13,907 nt of DNA from a virus (IMGVR_UViG_3300035698_021910:1-13907), one strand, 5' to 3'. Positions 2,956-13,907 are shown, counted from the first letter of the stretch. Translations and numbers: made by a program. Notes: a model not told the origin generated them from the letters alone.

Positions 2956-3455
2956 TTGCTAACAGCTAACGGAGTTATAACTAAATTGCCGTGTTCGACA
3001 GTAATGACTGGACCATTTGTATCGCTTGTAATCATAATTTGAAAAGTATCACCAGTAGATAAAGTAAAAAAACCAGAACCAGAGAGATGACCAACATCGC
3101 CACCAGTGGCTATTTTACGGCACAATTTAAGAGTAGCATTAGCAGTACCATTAATAGCAGGGGCAAATCTAATTATAACATTATTAGTATCAGAAATAAT
3201 ACAAGCGGAAAAAGTAACTAGAACATCAATATCAAGTTCGCCATTATAAGTAACGACACCGCCGACTTGAGTGAAATCGTCTTCGCTAACAGTTGAAAAA
3301 GTTCCTGCAATAGCATAAAAAGTTTCAGCGGTAGTAATGGTAGTAGTAGCACTAGAAGAGATATAATAATAAGCACTAGCAATAGATTTATAAATACGAA
3401 CGCCTTTGATCGCCTCCGTAAGTTTATTTATAGCATTTACAATAGCATTTAACAT
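2952..3455 (-). CDS. Putative tail-fibre tip or receptor-binding protein (167 aa), beta-rich
   Basis: ORF track. A short N-terminal helix is followed by a Ser/Thr/Gly-rich beta-strand pattern (..VTFSACIISD..TLSTGDTFQIMITSD..) reminiscent of TNF/C1q-like jelly-rolls. It is the last structural gene before lysis. By-eye resemblance only. Confidence 0.35.
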   Translation of the reverse strand: MLNAIVNAINKLTEAIKGVRIYKSIASAYYYISSSATTTITTAETFYAIAGTFSTVSEDDFTQVGGVVTYNGELDIDVLVTFSACIISDTNNVIIRFAPAINGTANATLKLCRKIATGGDVGHLSGSGFFTLSTGDTFQIMITSDTNGPVITVEHGNLVITPLAVSK

Positions 3456-3459
3456 AATT

Positions 3460-4893
3460 TTATTTAGAGGCTAATAAGCCAATAGGTTTATATAAATAAG
3501 TTACTTCAAAATCTTCAATTCCATAAGAACCAGCAGAATTAACAATCAAAGCAAATTCGATAAAATCAACAGTCTCTAAATTTCGAATATCATGAATTTT
3601 ACCAGTACTACCAGTTACACCACCAACACCAAGATTTGTTGAATAATCAGTAGTAAGATAATCAATATTTGCACCGATAGAATAATAATTTGAAGCATTC
3701 TCGACTACAGGCTTATGAGTTACAATAATATAACAAGGTACATGTTTAAAATTCAATCGAGGGAATCTGAAATTTGCGGTTTTAGTTGAAATTGTTGAAG
3801 TAGTATCATCATAGATATGGCTTTTACCGTCAGAGCCAACAGATAAAAAATGAATTTCACCAAAAAAATTAACCATTTCAATTAGAGTTTCTTTGCTATC
3901 AATAACTTTCAATAAAAAAATACCACCGTTTTCATTCATTTTGTAGAGGTATCTAAAGCTAGTTGAAGCCTTTGCAGTAAAATAAATATTAAATCTATCA
4001 GTACCAATTATTTTAACATCAGTATACTCATTTAAATTTTCATTAGAAAATAATATTGTTTCAGATTTATCATATCTATAAATTAAAACTCTATCTTTAT
4101 AAATATTAGCAATATAGATATTTTCATTTAATTTAATCATTGTTGCTGTATATTCATAATCTTCAAAAGTTTTTAAAAATTCAAGATCATTAGAAGTATA
4201 TTTACAAAAATAATTTGCGTTTAAATTACCATTTCTAATTATAAAATAAATATATCCGTCTAATTCAGAAATATCAACAACTTGATTATCTAAAGTTGCA
4301 CCGTCATAAAAAGTTTCCCAATCCACCGCATTATTAGAGCGAACAACAAGTCCTGTGTCATCAACAACATAAAAATAACCGTCAGTACCGATTAATGTTT
4401 TAACAGGCACAGAATAAGCCCAATCAGCGTGACTAAAAGTACTAGAATTATCAATACTATAAGATATTCTTTTTGTACCAGAAAGAAGACTAAATGCAAT
4501 TAAAAAATTTTTATAAGCAGTAAGCATATAGCAACTAGTGGTATTTGCAGGGAATGTGTAACCGAGGGTATAAGCATCATCACCTTGATCCTTATAATAA
4601 ATTAAAGGAACATCACCAGAAACATTACGAGCATTAAAAAGTTGAACATTACCGACAACACCTTGAACAGCTAAAGATTTTTTATCATAATTTACAGGAC
4701 TATCATAAGTGATAAGAGTATAATCAGGAGATAAATTTAATTTATGTGAAAAATCATCAATAACCATATTGACGGAAAGTTTAAATTTTGAAAGATCTTT
4801 CAAATCAATATATTCTTGATTAGATTTTCCAGTCATCAAATCAAAATTAATCCGTTGGTATCTTTTTGAGGTACTTCTAAATTTTTTATTCAT
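3460..4893 (-). CDS. Large structural protein (477 aa), likely a tail or host-recognition component
   Basis: ORF track. It is the largest ORF in the post-capsid block, with a beta-rich Tyr/Asn/Asp-rich composition. No tape-measure-sized gene is present, so a short-tailed virion is plausible. Confidence 0.45.
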   Translation of the reverse strand: MNKKFRSTSKRYQRINFDLMTGKSNQEYIDLKDLSKFKLSVNMVIDDFSHKLNLSPDYTLITYDSPVNYDKKSLAVQGVVGNVQLFNARNVSGDVPLIYYKDQGDDAYTLGYTFPANTTSCYMLTAYKNFLIAFSLLSGTKRISYSIDNSSTFSHADWAYSVPVKTLIGTDGYFYVVDDTGLVVRSNNAVDWETFYDGATLDNQVVDISELDGYIYFIIRNGNLNANYFCKYTSNDLEFLKTFEDYEYTATMIKLNENIYIANIYKDRVLIYRYDKSETILFSNENLNEYTDVKIIGTDRFNIYFTAKASTSFRYLYKMNENGGIFLLKVIDSKETLIEMVNFFGEIHFLSVGSDGKSHIYDDTTSTISTKTANFRFPRLNFKHVPCYIIVTHKPVVENASNYYSIGANIDYLTTDYSTNLGVGGVTGSTGKIHDIRNLETVDFIEFALIVNSAGSYGIEDFEVTYLYKPIGLLASK

Positions 4894-7004: not shown

Positions 7005-8159
7005 TTAAGTAATTCCATACATTCTAGTACCTCCACCATTTGATACTCTCATTGTGTATTCACCCAAAATTTGAATAGCAAGTTGCTTTCCGTTAGTTTT
7101 GTCATAAACGGGATAAGTAGCAAAAGCACCACCTTGCCCTTTGACACCACCGTCCAAAGGTCCATAACCAACTCTATTATAATCTAAGATTAAAGCCTCA
7201 TCTGATCGCATGTGTTTATCAACATGCAATTCGATTTCATAACCCAAAACAACTATAGTATTTATTTCAGTACCACCTTTTTTATCACTAACTTTAGTTC
7301 TAACAGCACCTTGATATAATTGCTCTATATCTCCAATAGATTCTGGAGAACCATGAATAGCAGACGGATATAATCCGCCGTCAATATGAGCGGTAACAGC
7401 AGTATAGATTTTGGCAACAGATAAAGCACCACCAACATTTGAAGTAATCGTGATAAATTCACGAAGTCCGCCCATTGTACCAATAAAATTAGTAGTGTCC
7501 AAATCAACAACACCTTCGAGCATAGTATAATTCAAACTTTTTAATAATTCCTTTAACTTTTTAACTACTTGATAATCCAATTCATCACCATTTGCCATTT
7601 TAGATCTTCGAAGTGTACCAGAAATTTGTGCAACATCTTCAAAAATTTGAGTATAATTTAAGCCAGCAGTTTGAGCGGTAAAATTAGCGGCGATAGGGTC
7701 GCCATTTTCGATTTGAGCATTACCAATGATTTTACAAACATGAGAACTATCGTGAGCCAAAACAGCAGCAGTTGAAGAACCGTGTCCACGGGCATAAACA
7801 TCTATAGATAAAGCGGCCAAAGCTGAAACAATCATAATCTCATCTGCATCAGTCAATAAAACATCGCCAATCCGCAATTTTAATCGGTCAGGTGCAGTAA
7901 TTGGTAAAGCAGTTTTATCAGAGGTAGTGTCCCAATCGGCAGCGTCCCCGCTGGCGGTAACTGTTATATATTCAGACCTTGCGGCATCGTCAAGCCATTC
8001 GTGCTTTTGAGCAGTAACCTTTTTATTAAAAGCCTTTTCAATAGAGGGTAAAAAATTAATAAATGATAAATATTTCATATCATCATCTTTTAGTGCCAAA
8101 ATGTCAATGACACTACTTAAATCTTCTCGCTCTCGTCTATTAGTTGTAATTAAATCCAT
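7005..8159 (-). CDS. Major capsid protein (HK97-fold type), 384 aa
   Basis: The track ORF 7005..8378 is trimmed to Met74 (ATG at 8159, MDLITTNRRE...). The upstream 73 codons overlap the scaffold ORF and are K-rich filler. The gene follows portal and scaffold. Motifs HEWLDD and NYTQIFED, plus the Gly/Ala-rich core, resemble capsid families I remember. Confidence 0.8.
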   Translation of the reverse strand: MDLITTNRREREDLSSVIDILALKDDDMKYLSFINFLPSIEKAFNKKVTAQKHEWLDDAARSEYITVTASGDAADWDTTSDKTALPITAPDRLKLRIGDVLLTDADEIMIVSALAALSIDVYARGHGSSTAAVLAHDSSHVCKIIGNAQIENGDPIAANFTAQTAGLNYTQIFEDVAQISGTLRRSKMANGDELDYQVVKKLKELLKSLNYTMLEGVVDLDTTNFIGTMGGLREFITITSNVGGALSVAKIYTAVTAHIDGGLYPSAIHGSPESIGDIEQLYQGAVRTKVSDKKGGTEINTIVVLGYEIELHVDKHMRSDEALILDYNRVGYGPLDGGVKGQGGAFATYPVYDKTNGKQLAIQILGEYTMRVSNGGGTRMYGIT

Positions 8160-8166
8160 ATTATTA

Positions 8167-8760
8167 TTATACAGGTAAATTTTCTTTCTGCCGATTAAGT
8201 TTGAGTATATCGACAGCTGAACTTTCACCGTTTTTAGTTTTATCTTCTTTAACTTTATCGATTGCCTCGTCAAAATCTGCCTCGGTTGAAAAACTAGGTG
8301 GTGCAAAATGTTGACTATCGCCATACATTTTTTTATTGACTTCTCGTTGTTTATCAACAATTTTTTCAATCTCATCATTACTTTTTCCGATTAAAAATTC
8401 GGGAAGTATATCAGGATAAGTTTTTTGCAAAACTTCCGATTGATGAGCTGTATTCATCACCTCAATATTTTTAGTTAAGTCTTCAACAGTCTTGCTTAAA
8501 TTTTCGATTTTTTTTTCAGAGTCCGACTTTTTGTCGTCATTTGTTTTTTTAATTTTTTCAAAATCCTCTTCAATTTTTTTTAAATCTAAATCTTTTTGAC
8601 TAAGCGTTTTTTGAAGTTTTTTAAAGTCTTCATCTTTTTTGAACTTACCGCTTGATTTTTCAAAAAGTTTACTAAAATCTTCAGGACTTATTGAATCAGG
8701 CAGAGTTTTTTCGTCAAGGTTTAAAAAGGTTCTAAACATTAACAGTAATTTTTTATCCAT
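8167..8760 (-). CDS. Scaffolding protein (197 aa)
   Basis: ORF track. Extremely K/E/D-rich and helical or coiled-coil-like. It lies between portal and capsid, and its stop is 7 nt before the capsid ATG. Confidence 0.6.
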   Translation of the reverse strand: MDKKLLLMFRTFLNLDEKTLPDSISPEDFSKLFEKSSGKFKKDEDFKKLQKTLSQKDLDLKKIEEDFEKIKKTNDDKKSDSEKKIENLSKTVEDLTKNIEVMNTAHQSEVLQKTYPDILPEFLIGKSNDEIEKIVDKQREVNKKMYGDSQHFAPPSFSTEADFDEAIDKVKEDKTKNGESSAVDILKLNRQKENLPV

Positions 8761-10224: not shown

Positions 10225-11589
10225 TTAACCGTCAACAGTTCCATAAGTATTAGTTATAACAGGAATTTTAGAGCAAGCAACAGCTAAAGCCATTAAATTA
10301 TCAGTCTCAAGATTTCCGTCGGCTCGTTGGTAAGTGGTCATTTCGTCGGCAAGTTCGGGAATATAAGGAGATTGAATTAATCCACCGTCAATAACAGCCT
10401 GAAGATGATCAAGCAAAAAATCTTTATTTCCACCACGGAAATCGACGGGGTGGACTACATCCATACACATTTCCCACAAAGTATCACCGACACCAGTACT
10501 ATCCATAAAAGATTGAGAACCACTTTCAAGTTGGGCGGTCCTAATTTCTTTTTCCATAGACGACGGAGCTTTGATTTCATTTTCTTTATTAAAATTTTCA
10601 CGTCCTTTTTCAGTCCAAGGTAATTGAAAAGCCCAACGCTTAACTATTTTATAAGGTTTTTTTCCTTTTAGAATACGGAAGCCAACAGTTTGGTCAGATA
10701 AACTTCCACGACGACCACGTGCTAAATCCCAACCCTCAATATAATCATAACCATTTTCAACAATATCAGTTAAATCAAGTTTATTATTGAAAAGTTTATC
10801 AACTCTTGAGGCAAACATCATTTCAGCAGTATCAATAAATTTTCCTTTGACAATTTGGTCTATTTTATTTTTACTCCAAGTTGAACAAAGATAATCAAAA
10901 AGTTTATGATCAATATGTGGATTTTCATAGGAAGTACCGCCACGAATAAATCCGCCTTTCCTTTCAATATCATTTTTAATTCGATAATAAGAATTAAAAC
11001 CTTTTGGCGTGGCATAAAAATCAAGTTGGCTATCTTTCCATTTTCTAGTCCTAGGAAGCAAAATTTTTTCGCGAATAAATTCAAGGTGTCTTTCGAGAGC
11101 AATTTCGTCAGCGGAAATATAACCGTATTCTTTACCCTCAATACTTTCACCTTTTCTTTTAGTGGTTTTAAATTCGGTACAAGCACCATTTTTGAAACGG
11201 ATTTGAGGGTAAGGATGATGAACAACATCTTTTTTAATATCACAAAACCAAGTACCAAGTAAGGGACTATGAGAAATTAAAGCAATCATTCGTTCGAGTA
11301 CAAGCTCTGATAATTCTTGAGTAATAGCAACATTTAAAGTTTTATATTTTTCACAATCAAGATAATGATACAATAAAAATCTCAAATGCTTTTTAGCAAT
11401 AACATCAGTTTTGCCCCAACCATTGCCCGGATGCAATAAATTTTCTTTTTTAGTAGAATTTTTAAGCCAATCTAATTGTCCCGGATGACTTTTATAATCA
11501 AGAACCAAATCATCAAAAGCAGACCAATCATTGTCAGTTTCAATAAGTTTCAAAGAGAAAGCTATAATATTTAATATTTTTTTATTCAT
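10225..11589 (-). CDS. terL: Terminase large subunit
   Basis: ORF track (454 aa). Walker A-like HPGNGWGKTD, Walker B-like GYISADEIA, YATPKG coupling-type motif, and C-terminal nuclease-type acidic motifs GWDLARG, MDSTGVGD and ETDNLMA. Confidence 0.9.
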   Translation of the reverse strand: MNKKILNIIAFSLKLIETDNDWSAFDDLVLDYKSHPGQLDWLKNSTKKENLLHPGNGWGKTDVIAKKHLRFLLYHYLDCEKYKTLNVAITQELSELVLERMIALISHSPLLGTWFCDIKKDVVHHPYPQIRFKNGACTEFKTTKRKGESIEGKEYGYISADEIALERHLEFIREKILLPRTRKWKDSQLDFYATPKGFNSYYRIKNDIERKGGFIRGGTSYENPHIDHKLFDYLCSTWSKNKIDQIVKGKFIDTAEMMFASRVDKLFNNKLDLTDIVENGYDYIEGWDLARGRRGSLSDQTVGFRILKGKKPYKIVKRWAFQLPWTEKGRENFNKENEIKAPSSMEKEIRTAQLESGSQSFMDSTGVGDTLWEMCMDVVHPVDFRGGNKDFLLDHLQAVIDGGLIQSPYIPELADEMTTYQRADGNLETDNLMALAVACSKIPVITNTYGTVDG

Positions 11590-11626
11590 TTTTTTAAAAG
11601 TAAAAAAATTATTTCTTCGATAGATT

Positions 11627-11710
11627 TTTGAGTTTTTTTTAAAGATGAAAAGTGAAAAAAGCGTTTGAGTTTTTTTTTAAAAATGAAAAGTAAAAAAGCG
11701 TTTGAGTTTT
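11627..11710. repeat. 2.3 tandem copies of a 37-bp repeat just upstream of the terL start
   Basis: Copies are TTTGAGTTTTTTTTAAAGATGAAAAGTGAAAAAAGCG (11627-11663), TTTGAGTTTTTTTTTAAAAATGAAAAGTAAAAAAGCG (11664-11700) and a partial TTTGAGTTTT (11701-11710). Confidence 0.85.
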
Positions 11711-11780
11711 CTCCGAAATCTTAATATATATAACACCCCCACTCTTTTGTTTTTGCTTTTTAAACATTAAACATTCAATA

Positions 11781-11960
11781 TTTAAACATTTAAACATTCA
11801 AGTTTCAACATTTAAACATTTAAACATTCAAGTTTCAACATTTAAACATTTAAACATTCAAGTTTCAACATTTAAACATTAAAACATTCAAGTTTCAACA
11901 TTTAAACATTAAAACATTCAAGTTTCAACATTTAAACATTAAAACATTCAAGTTTCAACA
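11781..11960. repeat. Six head-to-tail copies of a 30-bp unit (iteron-like array)
   Basis: The unit is TTTAAACATT(T/A)AAACATTCAAGTTTCAACA. Copies 1-3 carry T at unit position 11 and copies 4-6 carry A; otherwise they are identical. A degenerate partial copy lies at about 11759-11780. Each unit holds three AACATT hexamers spaced 8 and 14 nt apart. There are no spacers, so it is not a CRISPR array. Confidence 0.95.
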
Positions 11961-12160
11961 TTAAAGATTAAATAAGATGAAGATATAACAAACAAAGTTA
12001 AATAACATCATTAAATACAATATTGATATTGTACTTAATACTATTAAATAAGATAATAATACAACAAGATTAACAAAATTTAATAAACAAGACATAAATA
12101 ATACTAATTAATATACTATATATAGCCATACAAACAAGTAATATGTAACAATATATAGTA
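11961..12160. other. Extremely AT-rich, A-biased tract; candidate DNA-unwinding or bent region
   Basis: A manual count gives about 14 G and 19 C in 200 nt (about 16-17% GC). A greatly exceeds T on the plus strand, opposite to the coding regions, where the plus strand is T-rich. It directly abuts the 30-bp array. Confidence 0.5.
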
Positions 12161-12332
12161 ATACCACACCGCCCGACATTCAATTCACCTAATAGTCAAG
12201 ACTAAACCGCCCAACATTCAATCTTCCTAAGCACTAATATAGCTTAATATTGCCACAAAAGCTATGAATATATAACAATATAAAGCGATACCACTCCGCC
12301 AAATTACTGATTGACCTAATAACTAAGATTAA
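12138..12332. repeat. Degenerate ~67-bp direct repeat (12138-12205 and 12266-12332) with an extra half-copy (12204-12237), each carrying a CCGCC(C) core
   Basis: ATACCACACCGCCCGACATTCAATTCACCTAATAGTCAAGACTAA aligned with ATACCACTCCGCCAAATTACTGATTGACCTAATAACTAAGATTAA gives 31/45 identical without gaps, by hand. AACCGCCCAACATTCAATCTTCCTAAGCACTAA is a third related site. Confidence 0.6.
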
Positions 12333-12371
12333 TCCGAATAGAACTTCAAATGGATTAACTCCAAAAAGGAT

Positions 12372-12448
12372 GTCTAATTTGATACTCTTTTTACAACTCC
12401 CTCTTCACTTGAAAGTGAACCCGTTGTAAAAAGAGTATCAAATTAGAC
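12372..12448. repeat. Perfect 26-bp inverted repeat (77-nt hairpin or cruciform) with a nested mini-hairpin in the loop
   Basis: GTCTAATTTGATACTCTTTTTACAAC (12372-12397) is the exact reverse complement of GTTGTAAAAAGAGTATCAAATTAGAC (12423-12448). The 25-nt loop contains TTCACT-tgaa-AGTGAA (12404-12419). Confidence 0.95.
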
Positions 12449-12501
12449 TTTATCACTGCGGGATTAGCTCTAATGCTTCCTATTCTGCAATGGTTAGGCA
12501 T

Positions 12502-12527
12502 CATCGCATAATGTATATTAAGCGAAG
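12502..12527. promoter_or_regulatory. Imperfect 26-bp palindrome, copy 1 (CATCGCATAAT-gtat-ATTAAGCGAAG)
   Basis: It is self-complementary and also complementary to copy 2: 12505-12528 against 12621-12644 gives 24 bp with one G.T position. It is followed by TAGCC, as copy 2 is followed by AAGCC. Confidence 0.6.
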
Positions 12528-12621
12528 TAGCCTCAAACTTTAACTTTATTTAAAACTATATCGCGGGGCATTTAACTATAAGATATTACATATCATTTAC
12601 TAAAAAATAAAGCAGTACTAA

Positions 12622-12647
12622 CTTCGCTTAATATGCATTATGCGAAG
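12622..12647. promoter_or_regulatory. Imperfect 26-bp palindrome, copy 2 (CTTCGCTTAAT-atgc-ATTATGCGAAG)
   Basis: Same architecture as copy 1, with centres 120 bp apart. Direct alignment of the 28-nt cores gives 22/28 identity by hand. Confidence 0.6.
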
Positions 12648-12816
12648 AAGCCCACTTTTAACTGCCTGCGTGTACTCTGTTCTTTTACTGTTTATCTAGT
12701 TGGCTTCTGCTAGCTCGTTTTCTTTTGCAAATTTCCTGCTTAGCCAATTCCATATGTGAGAAATTTAAACTTAAATTTAACAAGAAAACTTTTTTTATTC
12801 CTGCCTCGTGTCATTT

Positions 12817-12888
12817 GTAGCTACCGCCCCCCGGTCTTTCCGCCCTGCGGGCGATATTACTTGCTCGTCCCTACTTCCTGCCGGGGCG
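12817..12888. ncRNA. GC-rich nested stem-loop element; candidate structured RNA of unknown class and undetermined strand
   Basis: Palindrome GTAGCTAC (12817-12824). Outer helix CGCCCC (12825-12830) with GGGGCG (12883-12888), or the alternative register CCCCGG with CCGGGG. Inner hairpin CGCCC-tgc-GGGCG (12841-12853). An alternative GGGCGA/TCGTCCC pairing is also possible. Local GC is about double the genome average. Confidence 0.35.
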
Positions 12889-13024
12889 AACTCATCATTC
12901 ATTCCAGCTAGTATTTATTGCAATTTTTTATTTTCAATTAGTCCAAGTCTTTTAATTAAAGGTTATTTACACAACTGCTAAAACTTTTGTGCTTTTAAAA
13001 ACTATCCCTTTTGTTGCACACAAA

Positions 13025-13564
13025 TTAAGTTTTAAATAAAACTGCCTGCTCATTCATTTGTAATCCGTATTTATCAGTCGCTTTTTGGAATACAGCTAGA
13101 ACATCTTTATTGTCTAAATTGTCGCCCTGTAATATTTGATAACGGATTTTAGCTAATTTTTCTAAATCAGAAATATCAATTTTATAGCTATTAGTATTCA
13201 TGGCATTTAAAATTTTATCATAAGCTAGATCAAGTAATTGAACAGTTTTTTGTAGATGAACTGATTGACTGGTGATTTCCTCGAGCGTCTCATTCTTAAT
13301 AATTTTAGTTGCTACATTTCTTTTATAATCAGCATAATTTTTAAAATGACGACATAGGCTAGCAGGCGAAACGCTATAACCAAACTGCTCCGAACACGCA
13401 ATAACTATCTCATCAAATGTTTTCCCGTTTTTTCTTAATTTATGAATTTCAGGTAAATAGCCAGAGTTACAGATTGAACAACGAGCGTCGCATATCTTTT
13501 CGTCAATTCCGCAAGATTTAAGTTGAGAGTCGATTGTTTTTTTTTCTTCGATAGTTTTATTCAT
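13025..13564 (-). CDS. Cys4 + helix-turn-helix DNA-binding protein (179 aa); small-terminase-like or replication/packaging initiator candidate
   Basis: ORF track. N-terminal CX6CX3CX2C cluster, an HTH-like segment GKTFDEIVIACSEQFGYSVSPASLCRHFKNY, and a helical C-terminal half. It is upstream of terL on the same strand but separated from it by 1.43 kb. Confidence 0.4.
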   Translation of the reverse strand: MNKTIEEKKTIDSQLKSCGIDEKICDARCSICNSGYLPEIHKLRKNGKTFDEIVIACSEQFGYSVSPASLCRHFKNYADYKRNVATKIIKNETLEEITSQSVHLQKTVQLLDLAYDKILNAMNTNSYKIDISDLEKLAKIRYQILQGDNLDNKDVLAVFQKATDKYGLQMNEQAVLFKT

Positions 13565-13672
13565 TGTTGAAAGTTATCCACAGCCCTTAGTGAGCGAGTT
13601 TAAAAAAGTGAGAATGATAATGATAGTTATTACTTTAGTAAGTTAGTAGTTAGTTAGTAAGTAACTAACTTA

Positions 13673-13701
13673 AGAGTAACTTTAATTTTGGGATTTGTCA
13701 A
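13673..13701 (-). promoter_or_regulatory. Candidate sigma70-type promoter for the terS-like gene
   Basis: The minus strand reads TTGACA (13701-13696), a 17-nt spacer, then TACTCT (13678-13673; only T1, A2 and T6 match the consensus). A DnaA box lies 3 nt upstream of the -35. Confidence 0.35.
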
Positions 13702-13778
13702 GCCTGTGGAAAAGGGGCTTATTTATCCACCTACTTATCCACAAGGACTAATCCCATAATTTGGGACCTATAAGAATG

Positions 13779-13810
13779 GGGGGCTAAATTTATTATAATG
13801 ATTAGCCCCC
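13779..13810 (-). terminator. GC-capped 9-bp hairpin at the end of the minus-strand gene series
   Basis: GGGGGCTAA (13779-13787), a 14-nt loop, TTAGCCCCC (13802-13810). On the minus strand it follows the stop of CDS 64..279 (across the circular junction) and is followed by AUUCUUAU. Copy 1 (1-30) is truncated by the window edge. Confidence 0.5.
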
Positions 13811-13907
13811 TGTCTTGTCAAATCTTTTCTACAAGATTTTTTGTTAATATTGTTGTGGATAACCTCCGCCATTATTTTGGTTTCCGTTGTTCTGATTTTG
13901 GTTGCCA
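13781..13907. repeat. Terminal direct repeat, copy 2 (exact duplicate of 1-127)
   Basis: Identical 127 nt. It includes the 3' part of the same CDS as 64..127, so it is not an independent gene. Confidence 0.9.
13792..13821 (-). promoter_or_regulatory. Near-consensus sigma70-type promoter embedded in the hairpin (also at 12-41)
   Basis: The minus strand reads TTGACA (13821-13816), an 18-nt spacer, then TATAAT (13797-13792). The -10 hexamer lies in the loop of the 13779-13810 hairpin. Confidence 0.45.

Follow-up and report, generated by a model that had tools for sequence, protein, structure and literature searches.

In the single-stranded DNA (ssDNA) phages f1 and M13, the intergenic region carries hairpins A to E, which make up the packaging signal and the minus- and plus-strand origins and which act in the packaged single strand, in one strand and orientation only. 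The RNase III sites of phages T7 and T3 are found in short spacers of polycistronic mRNAs, each as a single hairpin of about 60 nt, and the pac sites of SPP1-type phages, like cosB of lambda, are located within the small-terminase gene terS or upstream of it, span about 100-300 bp and have no compensatory hairpins. Single-strand origins (sso) consist of about 160 nt of hairpins whose function depends on orientation (PMC5703833), and the loop motif CS-6 of ssoA is TAGCGA (PMC6395029). Here we compare with these systems a locus of IMGVR_UViG_3300035698_021910:1-13907, a viral DNA of 13,907 nucleotides analysed at its full length (the window): the gap at 11590-13024 that separates, on the minus strand, the gene of a terS-like protein from terL, the gene of the large terminase.

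The gap resembles the f1/M13 region in being one large non-coding region of several long imperfect hairpins in a small phage genome, but it belongs to a double-stranded DNA phage of the terminase, portal and HK97 type, with no gpII-type nickase and no sequence similarity. The sso, G4-type and single-strand initiation (ssi) sites are hairpin regions of about 150 nt, conserved in structure over sequence and orientation-dependent; where ssoA is defined by intrastrand pairing over 130-200 nt, the gap has long hairpins with a sense-strand asymmetry, the gaps of relatives contain an 11-mer that holds CS-6, and GCGNAGC-type mini-hairpins occur at priming sites. Unlike sso regions, however, the locus has no RSB, Rep or double-strand origin (dso), its own genome lacks the 11-mer, and it is 3-10 times longer. 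With the T7/T3 sites it shares intercistronic hairpins of at least 20 bp with internal loops, which would form stable 3' ends and uncouple cistrons, whereas the many hairpins, the perfect 26-34-bp stems and the 1.4-kb spacer differ, and cleavage is predicted only. A looser likeness is to the pRNA of phi29, a structured non-coding, packaging-linked RNA of a very small tailed phage in which structure rather than sequence is conserved, but the gap has no Rfam match, and terL and the terS-like gene stand in place of the gp16/terminal-protein system. As in SPP1-type pac and lambda cosB, repeats adjoin the small-terminase-like gene, protein binding being a property of those sites. On the features open to comparison, the module falls short of a full match to the f1, sso/ssi, T7 RNase III and phi29 pRNA systems; we regard it as a structured cis-acting intergenic element in a minimal tailed phage, which may also, with modest probability, represent a genuinely new family of RNA.

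The best explanation of the locus is a two-part conserved module in a family of tailed phages that have genomes of roughly 13-15 kb and an association with Patescibacteria. Across this family the gap is conserved and contains no conserved gene, its hairpins have evolved by compensatory change, their features are asymmetric in favour of the sense strand, and base composition runs from GC-rich to AT-rich. The first and last 127 bases of the window are identical (1-127 = 13781-13907, within a small gene at 64-279), and the window is therefore a circular assembly with a k-mer-sized overlap and a genome length of 13,780 bp, in which the minus strand, here called the sense strand, carries all credible genes. 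No open reading frame (ORF) of at least 60 aa overlaps 11590-13024 on either strand, the longest being 57, 52, 51 and 44 aa, and each frame contains 17-30 TAA codons besides TAG and TGA. An alternative genetic code or a frameshifted gene is ruled out, since every frame is dense in the three stop codons throughout, so that no known recoding yields a gene, and relatives have no conserved ORF. The gap takes up 10.4% of the genome, with a coding density of 91% elsewhere, and the next largest non-coding stretches measure 279 bp (13565-13780 plus 1-63) and 240 bp.

These figures agree with the initial annotation, which had described 1,435 bp free of ORFs of 60 aa or more, about 10% of the genome, next to intergenic gaps of about 280 bp or less, and had read the locus as a dedicated cis-acting or RNA-encoding module. 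The relatives support a dedicated non-coding module rather than an assembly or frameshift artefact. Every block listed there is present, but the 30-bp array has 7.1 copies instead of 6, and what were called twin 26-bp palindromes are really the two arms of one inverted repeat, element A below. Its two misgivings, that relatives might carry an intact protein gene at this position or that the region might be hypervariable without conserved structure, are answered by the relatives, which keep the gap, have no such gene and share a conserved secondary structure.

The relatives recovered by terL comprise 11 IMG/VR contigs, 39 metagenome contigs and 11 contigs of GTDB genomes, in all about 50 relatives at 51-100% amino-acid identity, with labels beginning at L001 where they have to be told apart. 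Eight of the 11 genome contigs are in metagenome-assembled genomes labelled Parcubacteria, Moraniibacteriota/Moranbacteria or Patescibacteria, and it is by binning only that the lineage is associated with Patescibacteria. GenBank phages gave no match by DNA or by terL protein, and a search of the literature available found no description of this phage lineage or of its spacer. The phage of the window is itself present in samples JGI 3300025697, ENA ERZ27316756, ERZ27315476 and ERZ27315773, and SRR5458845 and SRR8862237. Wherever the terS-like gene and terL could both be placed in a relative, 432-1747 bp lie between them. No conserved protein gene was found in these gaps; their ORFs are short in low-GC relatives, and in high-GC relatives they are of low complexity, on either strand and not shared. 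Comparison of this gap with those of relatives by blastn gives almost nothing beyond element A and a weak array match, and the relatives' gaps are mosaics of blocks common to subsets. Composition is more constant: in most relatives the 100 nt of highest GC content fall at 5-30% of the gap, towards the terS-like gene, in 36 of 44 the 100 nt of highest AT content fall at 60-97%, towards terL, and the GC content of the gap is above that of coding DNA in most. All of 44 gaps have more G than C on the sense strand. We did not use as evidence the sense-antisense difference in minimum free energy (MFE), present in all 44 gaps, because this skew is genome-wide. Taken together, the comparisons argue that the gap is a conserved, working non-coding element.

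Structural conservation is clearest in element A (12489-12662, minus strand), a long hairpin of ~30 bp defined by its inverted repeat and by covariance. Its arms (12621-12652 and 12497-12528), of 32 nt each and 91% complementary, constitute one long-range inverted repeat. The lower stem reads UCGCAyAAC/GUUrUGCGA and the upper stem GCGAAGU/ACUUCGC, with one conserved pyrimidine mismatch, usually a one-nucleotide 5' bulge, and a covarying outer extension. The apical insert, or inter-arm spacer, varies from 13 to about 200 nt among relatives, a distance so variable that the arms must pair together and cannot be half-sites of a dimer operator. A covariance model of element A matched 15 distinct genomes on the gene-sense strand, down to 58% terL identity. 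In a hand-anchored alignment of these 15 genomes, 92.5% of cells are paired and compensatory (double) changes occur in 16 of the 24 pairs; none of 500 shuffles was as good, and sliding the partners by 1-3 columns left at most 46% paired. These changes bear out the earlier expectation of a structured element. Extra matches from an exact-motif scan of IMG/VR were chance matches without structure and were discarded.

Hairpin B (12372-12448, minus strand), recognised from its inverted repeat and by folding, has a perfect 26-bp stem (12372-12397/12423-12448), an internal loop made asymmetric by 2-3 nt on its 5' side against 5-6 purine-rich nt on its 3' side, and a 6-bp apical stem; it folds at -42.7 kcal/mol (z -10.3). 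In the eight closest relatives, element A is followed after about 45-50 nt by a hairpin of like shape, which is 93% paired although the arms are just 33% identical. Among six assemblies of this phage, hairpin B is invariant and the arms of element A are invariant or nearly so, and the variation is in the apex, the linker between A and B, and the array. More generally, the gaps hold 1.46 hairpins of 16 or more Watson-Crick pairs per kb, vs 0.06 per kb in the coding DNA downstream, a 24-fold difference.

Closer to the terS-like gene, a GC-rich nested hairpin region at about 12815-12895 (minus strand, from folding and motif positions) folds at -32.7 kcal/mol (z -3.0) on the minus strand and at -25.0 (z -1.3) on the plus strand. 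It includes CGCCC-GCA-GGGCG at 12841-12853, with a GNA triloop on the sense strand, a G6 run at 12827-12832, and a single mini-hairpin-type motif, GCGGTAGC, at 12820-12827 on the sense strand. The wider region 12290-12940 has a folding z-score of -7.4 and, like hairpin B and the tandem array, is structured far beyond chance. Towards terL, three dispersed direct repeats with a GGGCGGT/GGCGGAG core (12160-12319, within a segment taken as 12120-12319, minus strand, repeat families D2 and D3) are G-rich on the sense strand, and GGGCGG occurs four times in the gap on that strand and never on the other. An Rfam 15 covariance search of the window with E up to 10 returned only miRNA-precursor models on hairpin B, far under their thresholds, and 17 relatives had no match at the gathering threshold, in line with the initial annotation, which recognised no known RNA family; the families covered include phi29 pRNA, GOLLD, ROOL, tmRNA and 6S. 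No tRNA or tmRNA was detected. Antisense targeting by the hairpin arms elsewhere in the genome was discarded, with only chance 12-13-mers found.

Which strand folds is indicated by the mismatches. In the gene-sense orientation, element A contains 12 G·U/U·G wobbles vs two A·C/C·A, and its covariance-model scores are higher on the sense strand than on the other. A strand-symmetric search of all gap hairpins gave 50 G·T vs 22 A·C, when base composition predicts about 57:43. Since G·U/G·T is in excess over A·C on the sense strand, these counts place the functional fold on that strand.

The terL-proximal part of the gap is of a different kind. An AT-rich tract of about 16-18% GC (11970-12140, no strand assigned, in a zone of about 18% GC around 11850-12150) is followed by a tandem array of 7.1 units of 30 nt (11759-11969, minus strand, from repeat detection and folding), and then by a 37-nt tandem repeat present 2.3 times just upstream of terL (11627-11710, minus strand). 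Most relatives have a -10-like TAnnnT, often TGnTATnAT, 6-8 nt before the terL ATG; in this genome it is only weak, being the hexamer TACTTT 7 nt before the ATG (11597-11602, minus strand). Judging from this box, terL is likely to be transcribed from a separate promoter as a leaderless mRNA. In one sub-clade (L009, L011, L028, L032, L044, L049, L061, L039), a DnaA box lies 40-54 nt before terL, just upstream of the -10-like box, and DnaA may regulate the late promoter there. Consensus sigma-70 promoters show no consistent site within the gaps and no strand bias (16 sense vs 12 antisense).

Our preferred reading, which we hold tentatively and with less than even confidence, is a cis-acting module that works as a folded single strand of sense polarity; in the simplest case this would be RNA, at the 3' end of the transcript of the terS-like gene. 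Part 1, from 13024 to about 12300, would be a GC-enriched chain of long hairpins, namely a GC clamp, element A and hairpin B, acting folded and single-stranded on the gene-sense strand, with RNA as the simplest carrier. The RNA carrier is supported by the consensus sigma-70 promoter upstream of the terS-like gene together with the lack of a strong terminator after it: a transcript starting at the 13821 promoter and encoding the terS-like protein would run straight into the hairpins, which would thus be the structured 3' end of an early terS-like message. There they might bind protein and undergo RNase III-type processing or stabilisation, and so end, stabilise or insulate the early message from the late operon. 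Part 2, from about 12300 to 11590, would be the AT-rich, repeat-rich and fast-evolving upstream region of a separate terL promoter, which would give a leaderless late mRNA, its tandem arrays being unstable. The initial annotation had seen no convincing minus-strand terminator, and our simple scan likewise gave one weak site, at 12300-12284. Its proposal of co-transcription with the late operon has to be amended: the gap is probably not simply a late-operon leader, given the -10-like box before the terL ATG in most relatives.

Several points weigh against this reading. That RNA rather than DNA is the active molecule is an assumption on our part, and the excess of G·T among the mismatches of all hairpins amounts to only about 1.5-fold; as G·T is also the best-tolerated DNA mismatch, the strand asymmetry fits a folded sense DNA strand equally well. 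Perfect stems of 26-34 bp are unusual in stable bacterial RNAs, and RNase III would cut them. Classical intrinsic (Rho-independent) terminators were rejected because T-runs do not follow the hairpins: among 77 gap hairpins, six have at least 5 T in the 8 nt downstream vs nine with at least 5 A upstream. Covariation of whole-gap MFE structures in pairs of relatives is not above slid controls, so that only discrete hairpins are supported. Finally, the 11-mer GAGCGNAGCGA (GAGCG[G/A/T]AGCGA) occurs 78 times in the relatives' gaps, always on the sense strand, and is essentially absent elsewhere; its core GCGNAGC is the DNA mini-hairpin motif of priming and hairpin-promoter sites, and in unrelated contigs the 11-mer keeps no fixed relation to the coding strand (by a crude assignment against the dominant coding direction, 18 on the same strand, 36 on the opposite one and 58 unclear).

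These last points are at the heart of the alternative that survives best, which we consider less probable than the preferred reading and unlikely in itself: the gap would provide ssDNA signals, sense-strand DNA hairpins that, when in the displaced strand or lagging-strand template, recruit host primase, RNA polymerase or PriA, in the manner of sso, G4-type and ssi sites. The phage encodes no replication protein that we recognise among the products of its 13.8-kb genome, which on this alternative is the reason that ssDNA priming signals would be needed. GCGNAGC forms an "extraordinarily stable" DNA mini-hairpin at the primase sites of G4, St-1 and alpha3, at RSF1010 ssiA and in the N4 hairpin promoters (PMC13037366). 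In the relatives' gaps, GCG-N1-2-AGC is found at 3.28 per kb in sense vs 0.33 in antisense orientation and at 0.38 elsewhere, and GAGCG-N1-2-AGCG at 49:0 sense to antisense, with one occurrence in 234 kb elsewhere. The 11-mer can fold on itself through tandem G·A pairs, two G-C pairs and a GNA triloop; several copies may occur per gap, often capping hairpins, including the apex of element A in L003. CS-6 is half of the 11-mer, [G/A/T]AGCGA is often located in hairpin loops of relatives, and the gaps are like sso hairpin regions in conserving structure and not sequence. Pairs of the 11-mer within 30 nt also occur in at least 120 unrelated IMG/VR contigs (L092-L211), about 10-40 times the chance expectation, which by our own estimate is about 3-15 contigs. 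These contigs range from 27 to 65% GC, the motif is mostly non-coding and keeps to a single strand within each contig, whichever way the genes run, and its flanks are complementary by at least 2 bp in 46% of cases.

In this genome, several points count against such signals. Its gap lacks the 11-mer and has only one GCGNNAGC and one C-GCA-G triloop hairpin, and CS-6 in the form TAGCG[AT] is absent from both strands of it. RSB (TTTATGCCGAGAAAA-like), the second defining sequence of ssoA, has no match at up to 2 mismatches in any gap, and matches with 3-4 mismatches are scattered over both strands. No Rep or HUH domain was recognised among the genome's proteins, and no dso was found. Moreover, a DnaA-box origin candidate exists, from which, with DnaB and DnaG, no special priming site would be needed, and ssDNA signals would not account for the constant place of the region between terS and terL.

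A packaging signal is a further alternative, to which we give a low probability: the terS-like protein would load on repeated sites beside its own gene, and terL would cut nearby. The initial annotation had also envisaged a pac/cos recognition region for the adjacent DNA-binding protein. The region always adjoins both the terS-like gene and terL, and the upstream family has weak terS-like features. Each 30-nt array unit contains three TTT[A/C]AACA sub-repeats spaced 8, 8 and 14 nt, about one per helical turn on average, and terL-proximal tandem arrays recur in several relatives (L002, L051, L046, L040, L044, L032 and L023), differing in sequence as the terS-like protein diverges; their units are unrelated, save for a related 39-nt array in L002. 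Many relatives, however, have no array, and among assemblies of the same phage its length differs by -180, about -50, 0 and +60 nt, which may be short-read assembly collapse of the 210-nt array. For a pac site about 100-300 bp would suffice, where the gaps measure 0.4-1.7 kb, and packaging leaves the compensatory hairpins and the strand asymmetry unexplained. Circular assemblies, with overlaps of 114-127 nt, are compatible with circular permutation. Several near-complete contigs break inside the gap; contig ends are uninformative as genome termini, since the near-complete contigs are all circular assemblies.

We consider it similarly improbable that the GC clamp, element A and hairpin B form a new structured RNA family of minimal Patescibacteria tailed phages, released from the early transcript and acting in trans. 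If so, the RNA would be a terminase or portal cofactor or scaffold, or a sponge or decoy for a host protein, and the GAGCGNAGCGA cap would be its protein-recognition module. The broader class of trans-acting RNAs, whether a sponge or decoy that captures a protein through repeated hairpin-loop motifs, an anti-defence mimic such as a pseudo-antitoxin repeat array, or a packaging cofactor RNA, seems quite unlikely to us. It draws on the same structural evidence as the preferred reading, on the several copies of one hairpin-cap motif per gap in relatives, on the invariant position beside packaging genes, and on the variable copy number of the 30-nt array, which as RNA folds only on the minus (sense) strand, through G·U pairs (-63 kcal/mol, with z-scores of -9.9 to -14.3, vs -10 kcal/mol and z -2.8 on the plus strand). 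The arrays of other relatives are unstructured in folding, however, the copy-number differences may reflect the assembly collapse mentioned above, this genome lacks the repeated cap motif, Rfam gives no family match, and no partner gene (toxN-like or for an RNA-binding protein) is present. A type III toxin-antitoxin array (ToxI-like), in which tandem repeats of about 34-40 nt stand immediately ahead of a toxN-type endoribonuclease gene, was rejected, as the gene after the tandem array is terL and there is no toxN-like ORF, and so was a clustered regularly interspaced short palindromic repeats (CRISPR) array, the repeats being head-to-tail without spacers.

An origin within the gap is, in our estimate, just as doubtful as this broader class. 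It could be of an iteron type, with an initiator bound to the 30-bp repeats and strand opening in the tract of 16-18% GC, or of an R-loop type, with DNA synthesis primed by the G-rich RNA made from the upstream promoter, as in ColE1, T4 oriF and T7; the two types share the one low estimate. The array adjoins the AT-rich tract, no phage replication gene is recognised, a strong promoter lies upstream, and the excess of G over C on the sense strand reaches its most extreme value in the whole window at 11700-12450. Against this, G-runs are just mildly enriched, no initiator is known or recognised for the supposed iterons, and the arrays are not conserved. The iterons proposed in the initial annotation are weakened by their sequence, which differs between relatives, by their absence from many, and by a copy number that varies between assemblies of the same phage. 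The DnaA box of the sub-clade described above counts for an origin, but it adjoins the -10-like box and may be regulatory.

The origin reading of the gap is weakened further by the other intergenic region, outside the module (13565-13907, minus strand), which carries a promoter and DnaA boxes. A perfect sigma-70 promoter, TTGACA-18-TATAAT, is located upstream of the terS-like gene at 13821-13792 on the minus strand, and DnaA boxes (TTATCCACA) are found at 13574, 13705, 13723, 13735 and 13854, the cluster spanning 13574-13862, beside an AT-rich, TAG/TAA-rich stretch at about 13600-13690. In most relatives a DnaA-box cluster is conserved 90-300 nt upstream of the terS-like gene, whereas the terS-terL gap of this genome has none of the DnaA boxes that usually accompany the unwinding element of an iteron-type origin. 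The region at 13565-13907 is thus a better origin candidate than the gap, although its DnaA boxes could instead be elements of a DnaA-regulated promoter.

That the gap is mostly non-functional filler, tolerating palindrome and repeat insertions and kept for genome length in headful packaging, is very improbable: fast primary-sequence turnover with blocks shared as a mosaic, four-fold length variation and unstable arrays would suit it, but not the retention of element A in sequence and structure down to 58% terL identity, the conserved A-then-B order and spacing, the conserved GC-to-AT polarity, or the strict motif orientation.

The genes around the module have the order terS-like (179 aa, 13564-13025), gap, terL (11589-10225), portal (SPP1_portal) and scaffold-like protein, followed by the major capsid protein (SU10_MCP), tail-like proteins, an M23+LysM lysin and five small ORFs. 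The downstream neighbour terL (10225-11589, minus strand) was identified by Pfam Terminase_6N. The upstream neighbour (13025-13564, minus strand) combines a Zn-ribbon, a helix-turn-helix and a long helix. Searches of Pfam and PHROG gave no match for the protein of this genome, and a PDB profile search gave nothing; four of 31 members of the terS-like family match Pfam Phage_Mu_Gp27 (best E 7e-6). An AlphaFold2 model built from database homologues has a predicted local distance difference test score of 67, with about 90 across residues 30-70, and its best Foldseek/PDB match is the G20c small terminase at a non-significant E of 1.5. A small-terminase identity of this protein is only weakly indicated.

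Some further observations concern these and other genes. The 94-aa protein at 1261-1545 resembles, at a borderline level (E 1.4e-4, marginally under the cut-off), the domain with which the N-terminus of ArdC binds ssDNA (Pfam ArdcN). The capsid ORF (7005-8378, 457 aa) overlaps the scaffold-like gene (8167-8760) by 212 nt, and because relatives' alignments begin only at about residue 70-82, its true start is probably an internal Met near residue 74. The 12-mer CTATCGAAGAAA is present on the sense strand at 11612-11623, 23 nt upstream of the terL start, and at 13543-13554, in codons 4-7 of the terS-like gene, which may be a small duplication or chance; both genes start with ATGAATAAA. None of the 21 ORF starts in this genome is preceded by a Shine-Dalgarno sequence, the upstream positions being A/T-rich.

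Other observations come from relatives' gaps. In L001, L004, L005, L006, L012, L014, L051 and L052, the B-type hairpins directly precede ACUCCU(U)A, which resembles the 3' end of 16S rRNA (anti-Shine-Dalgarno). The idea that ACUCCUUA after these hairpins has an anti-Shine-Dalgarno role was dropped, as the genes of this genome have no Shine-Dalgarno sequence and the whole window no ACTCCT. A block termed element C, ATATTAGAGCGTAAGCGTTTATAGAGnAAAGAGCGGAGCGAC.CCTTTTTT, is common to the gaps of L001, L003, L004, L012, L013 and L051 and absent from this genome. L013 has a protein-like 146-aa ORF just upstream of terL (3243-3683, gap positions 1152-1592) without a Pfam match, and a stretch of L012 that is 80% identical to it has no ORF of more than 40 aa, so this may be a decaying accessory gene. 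L058, in which terS, gap and terL are contiguous, making an attP unlikely, is situated at the end of a 65.8-kb Moraniibacteriota contig (JAAXXZ010000003.1), and the 41.6-kb contig WBZQ01000313.1 contains two different family members (L027 and L035) in opposite orientation. These contigs could be prophages, chimeric assemblies or larger elements.

In a genome close to the lower size limit of tailed phages, and one in which we recognise no gene for replication, 10% of the length is nevertheless given over to a lineage-wide module. This module would be a handle on early-to-late expression, replication priming or packaging in minimal Patescibacteria phages, by way of host factors and nucleic-acid structure. 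Element A and the A-B hairpin pair are candidates for a new structured-element family, and the enrichment of the GAGCGNAGCGA cap in the non-coding DNA of many unrelated phages suggests that this mini-hairpin signal, whether DNA or RNA, is perhaps far more widespread than G4, N4 and RSF1010.

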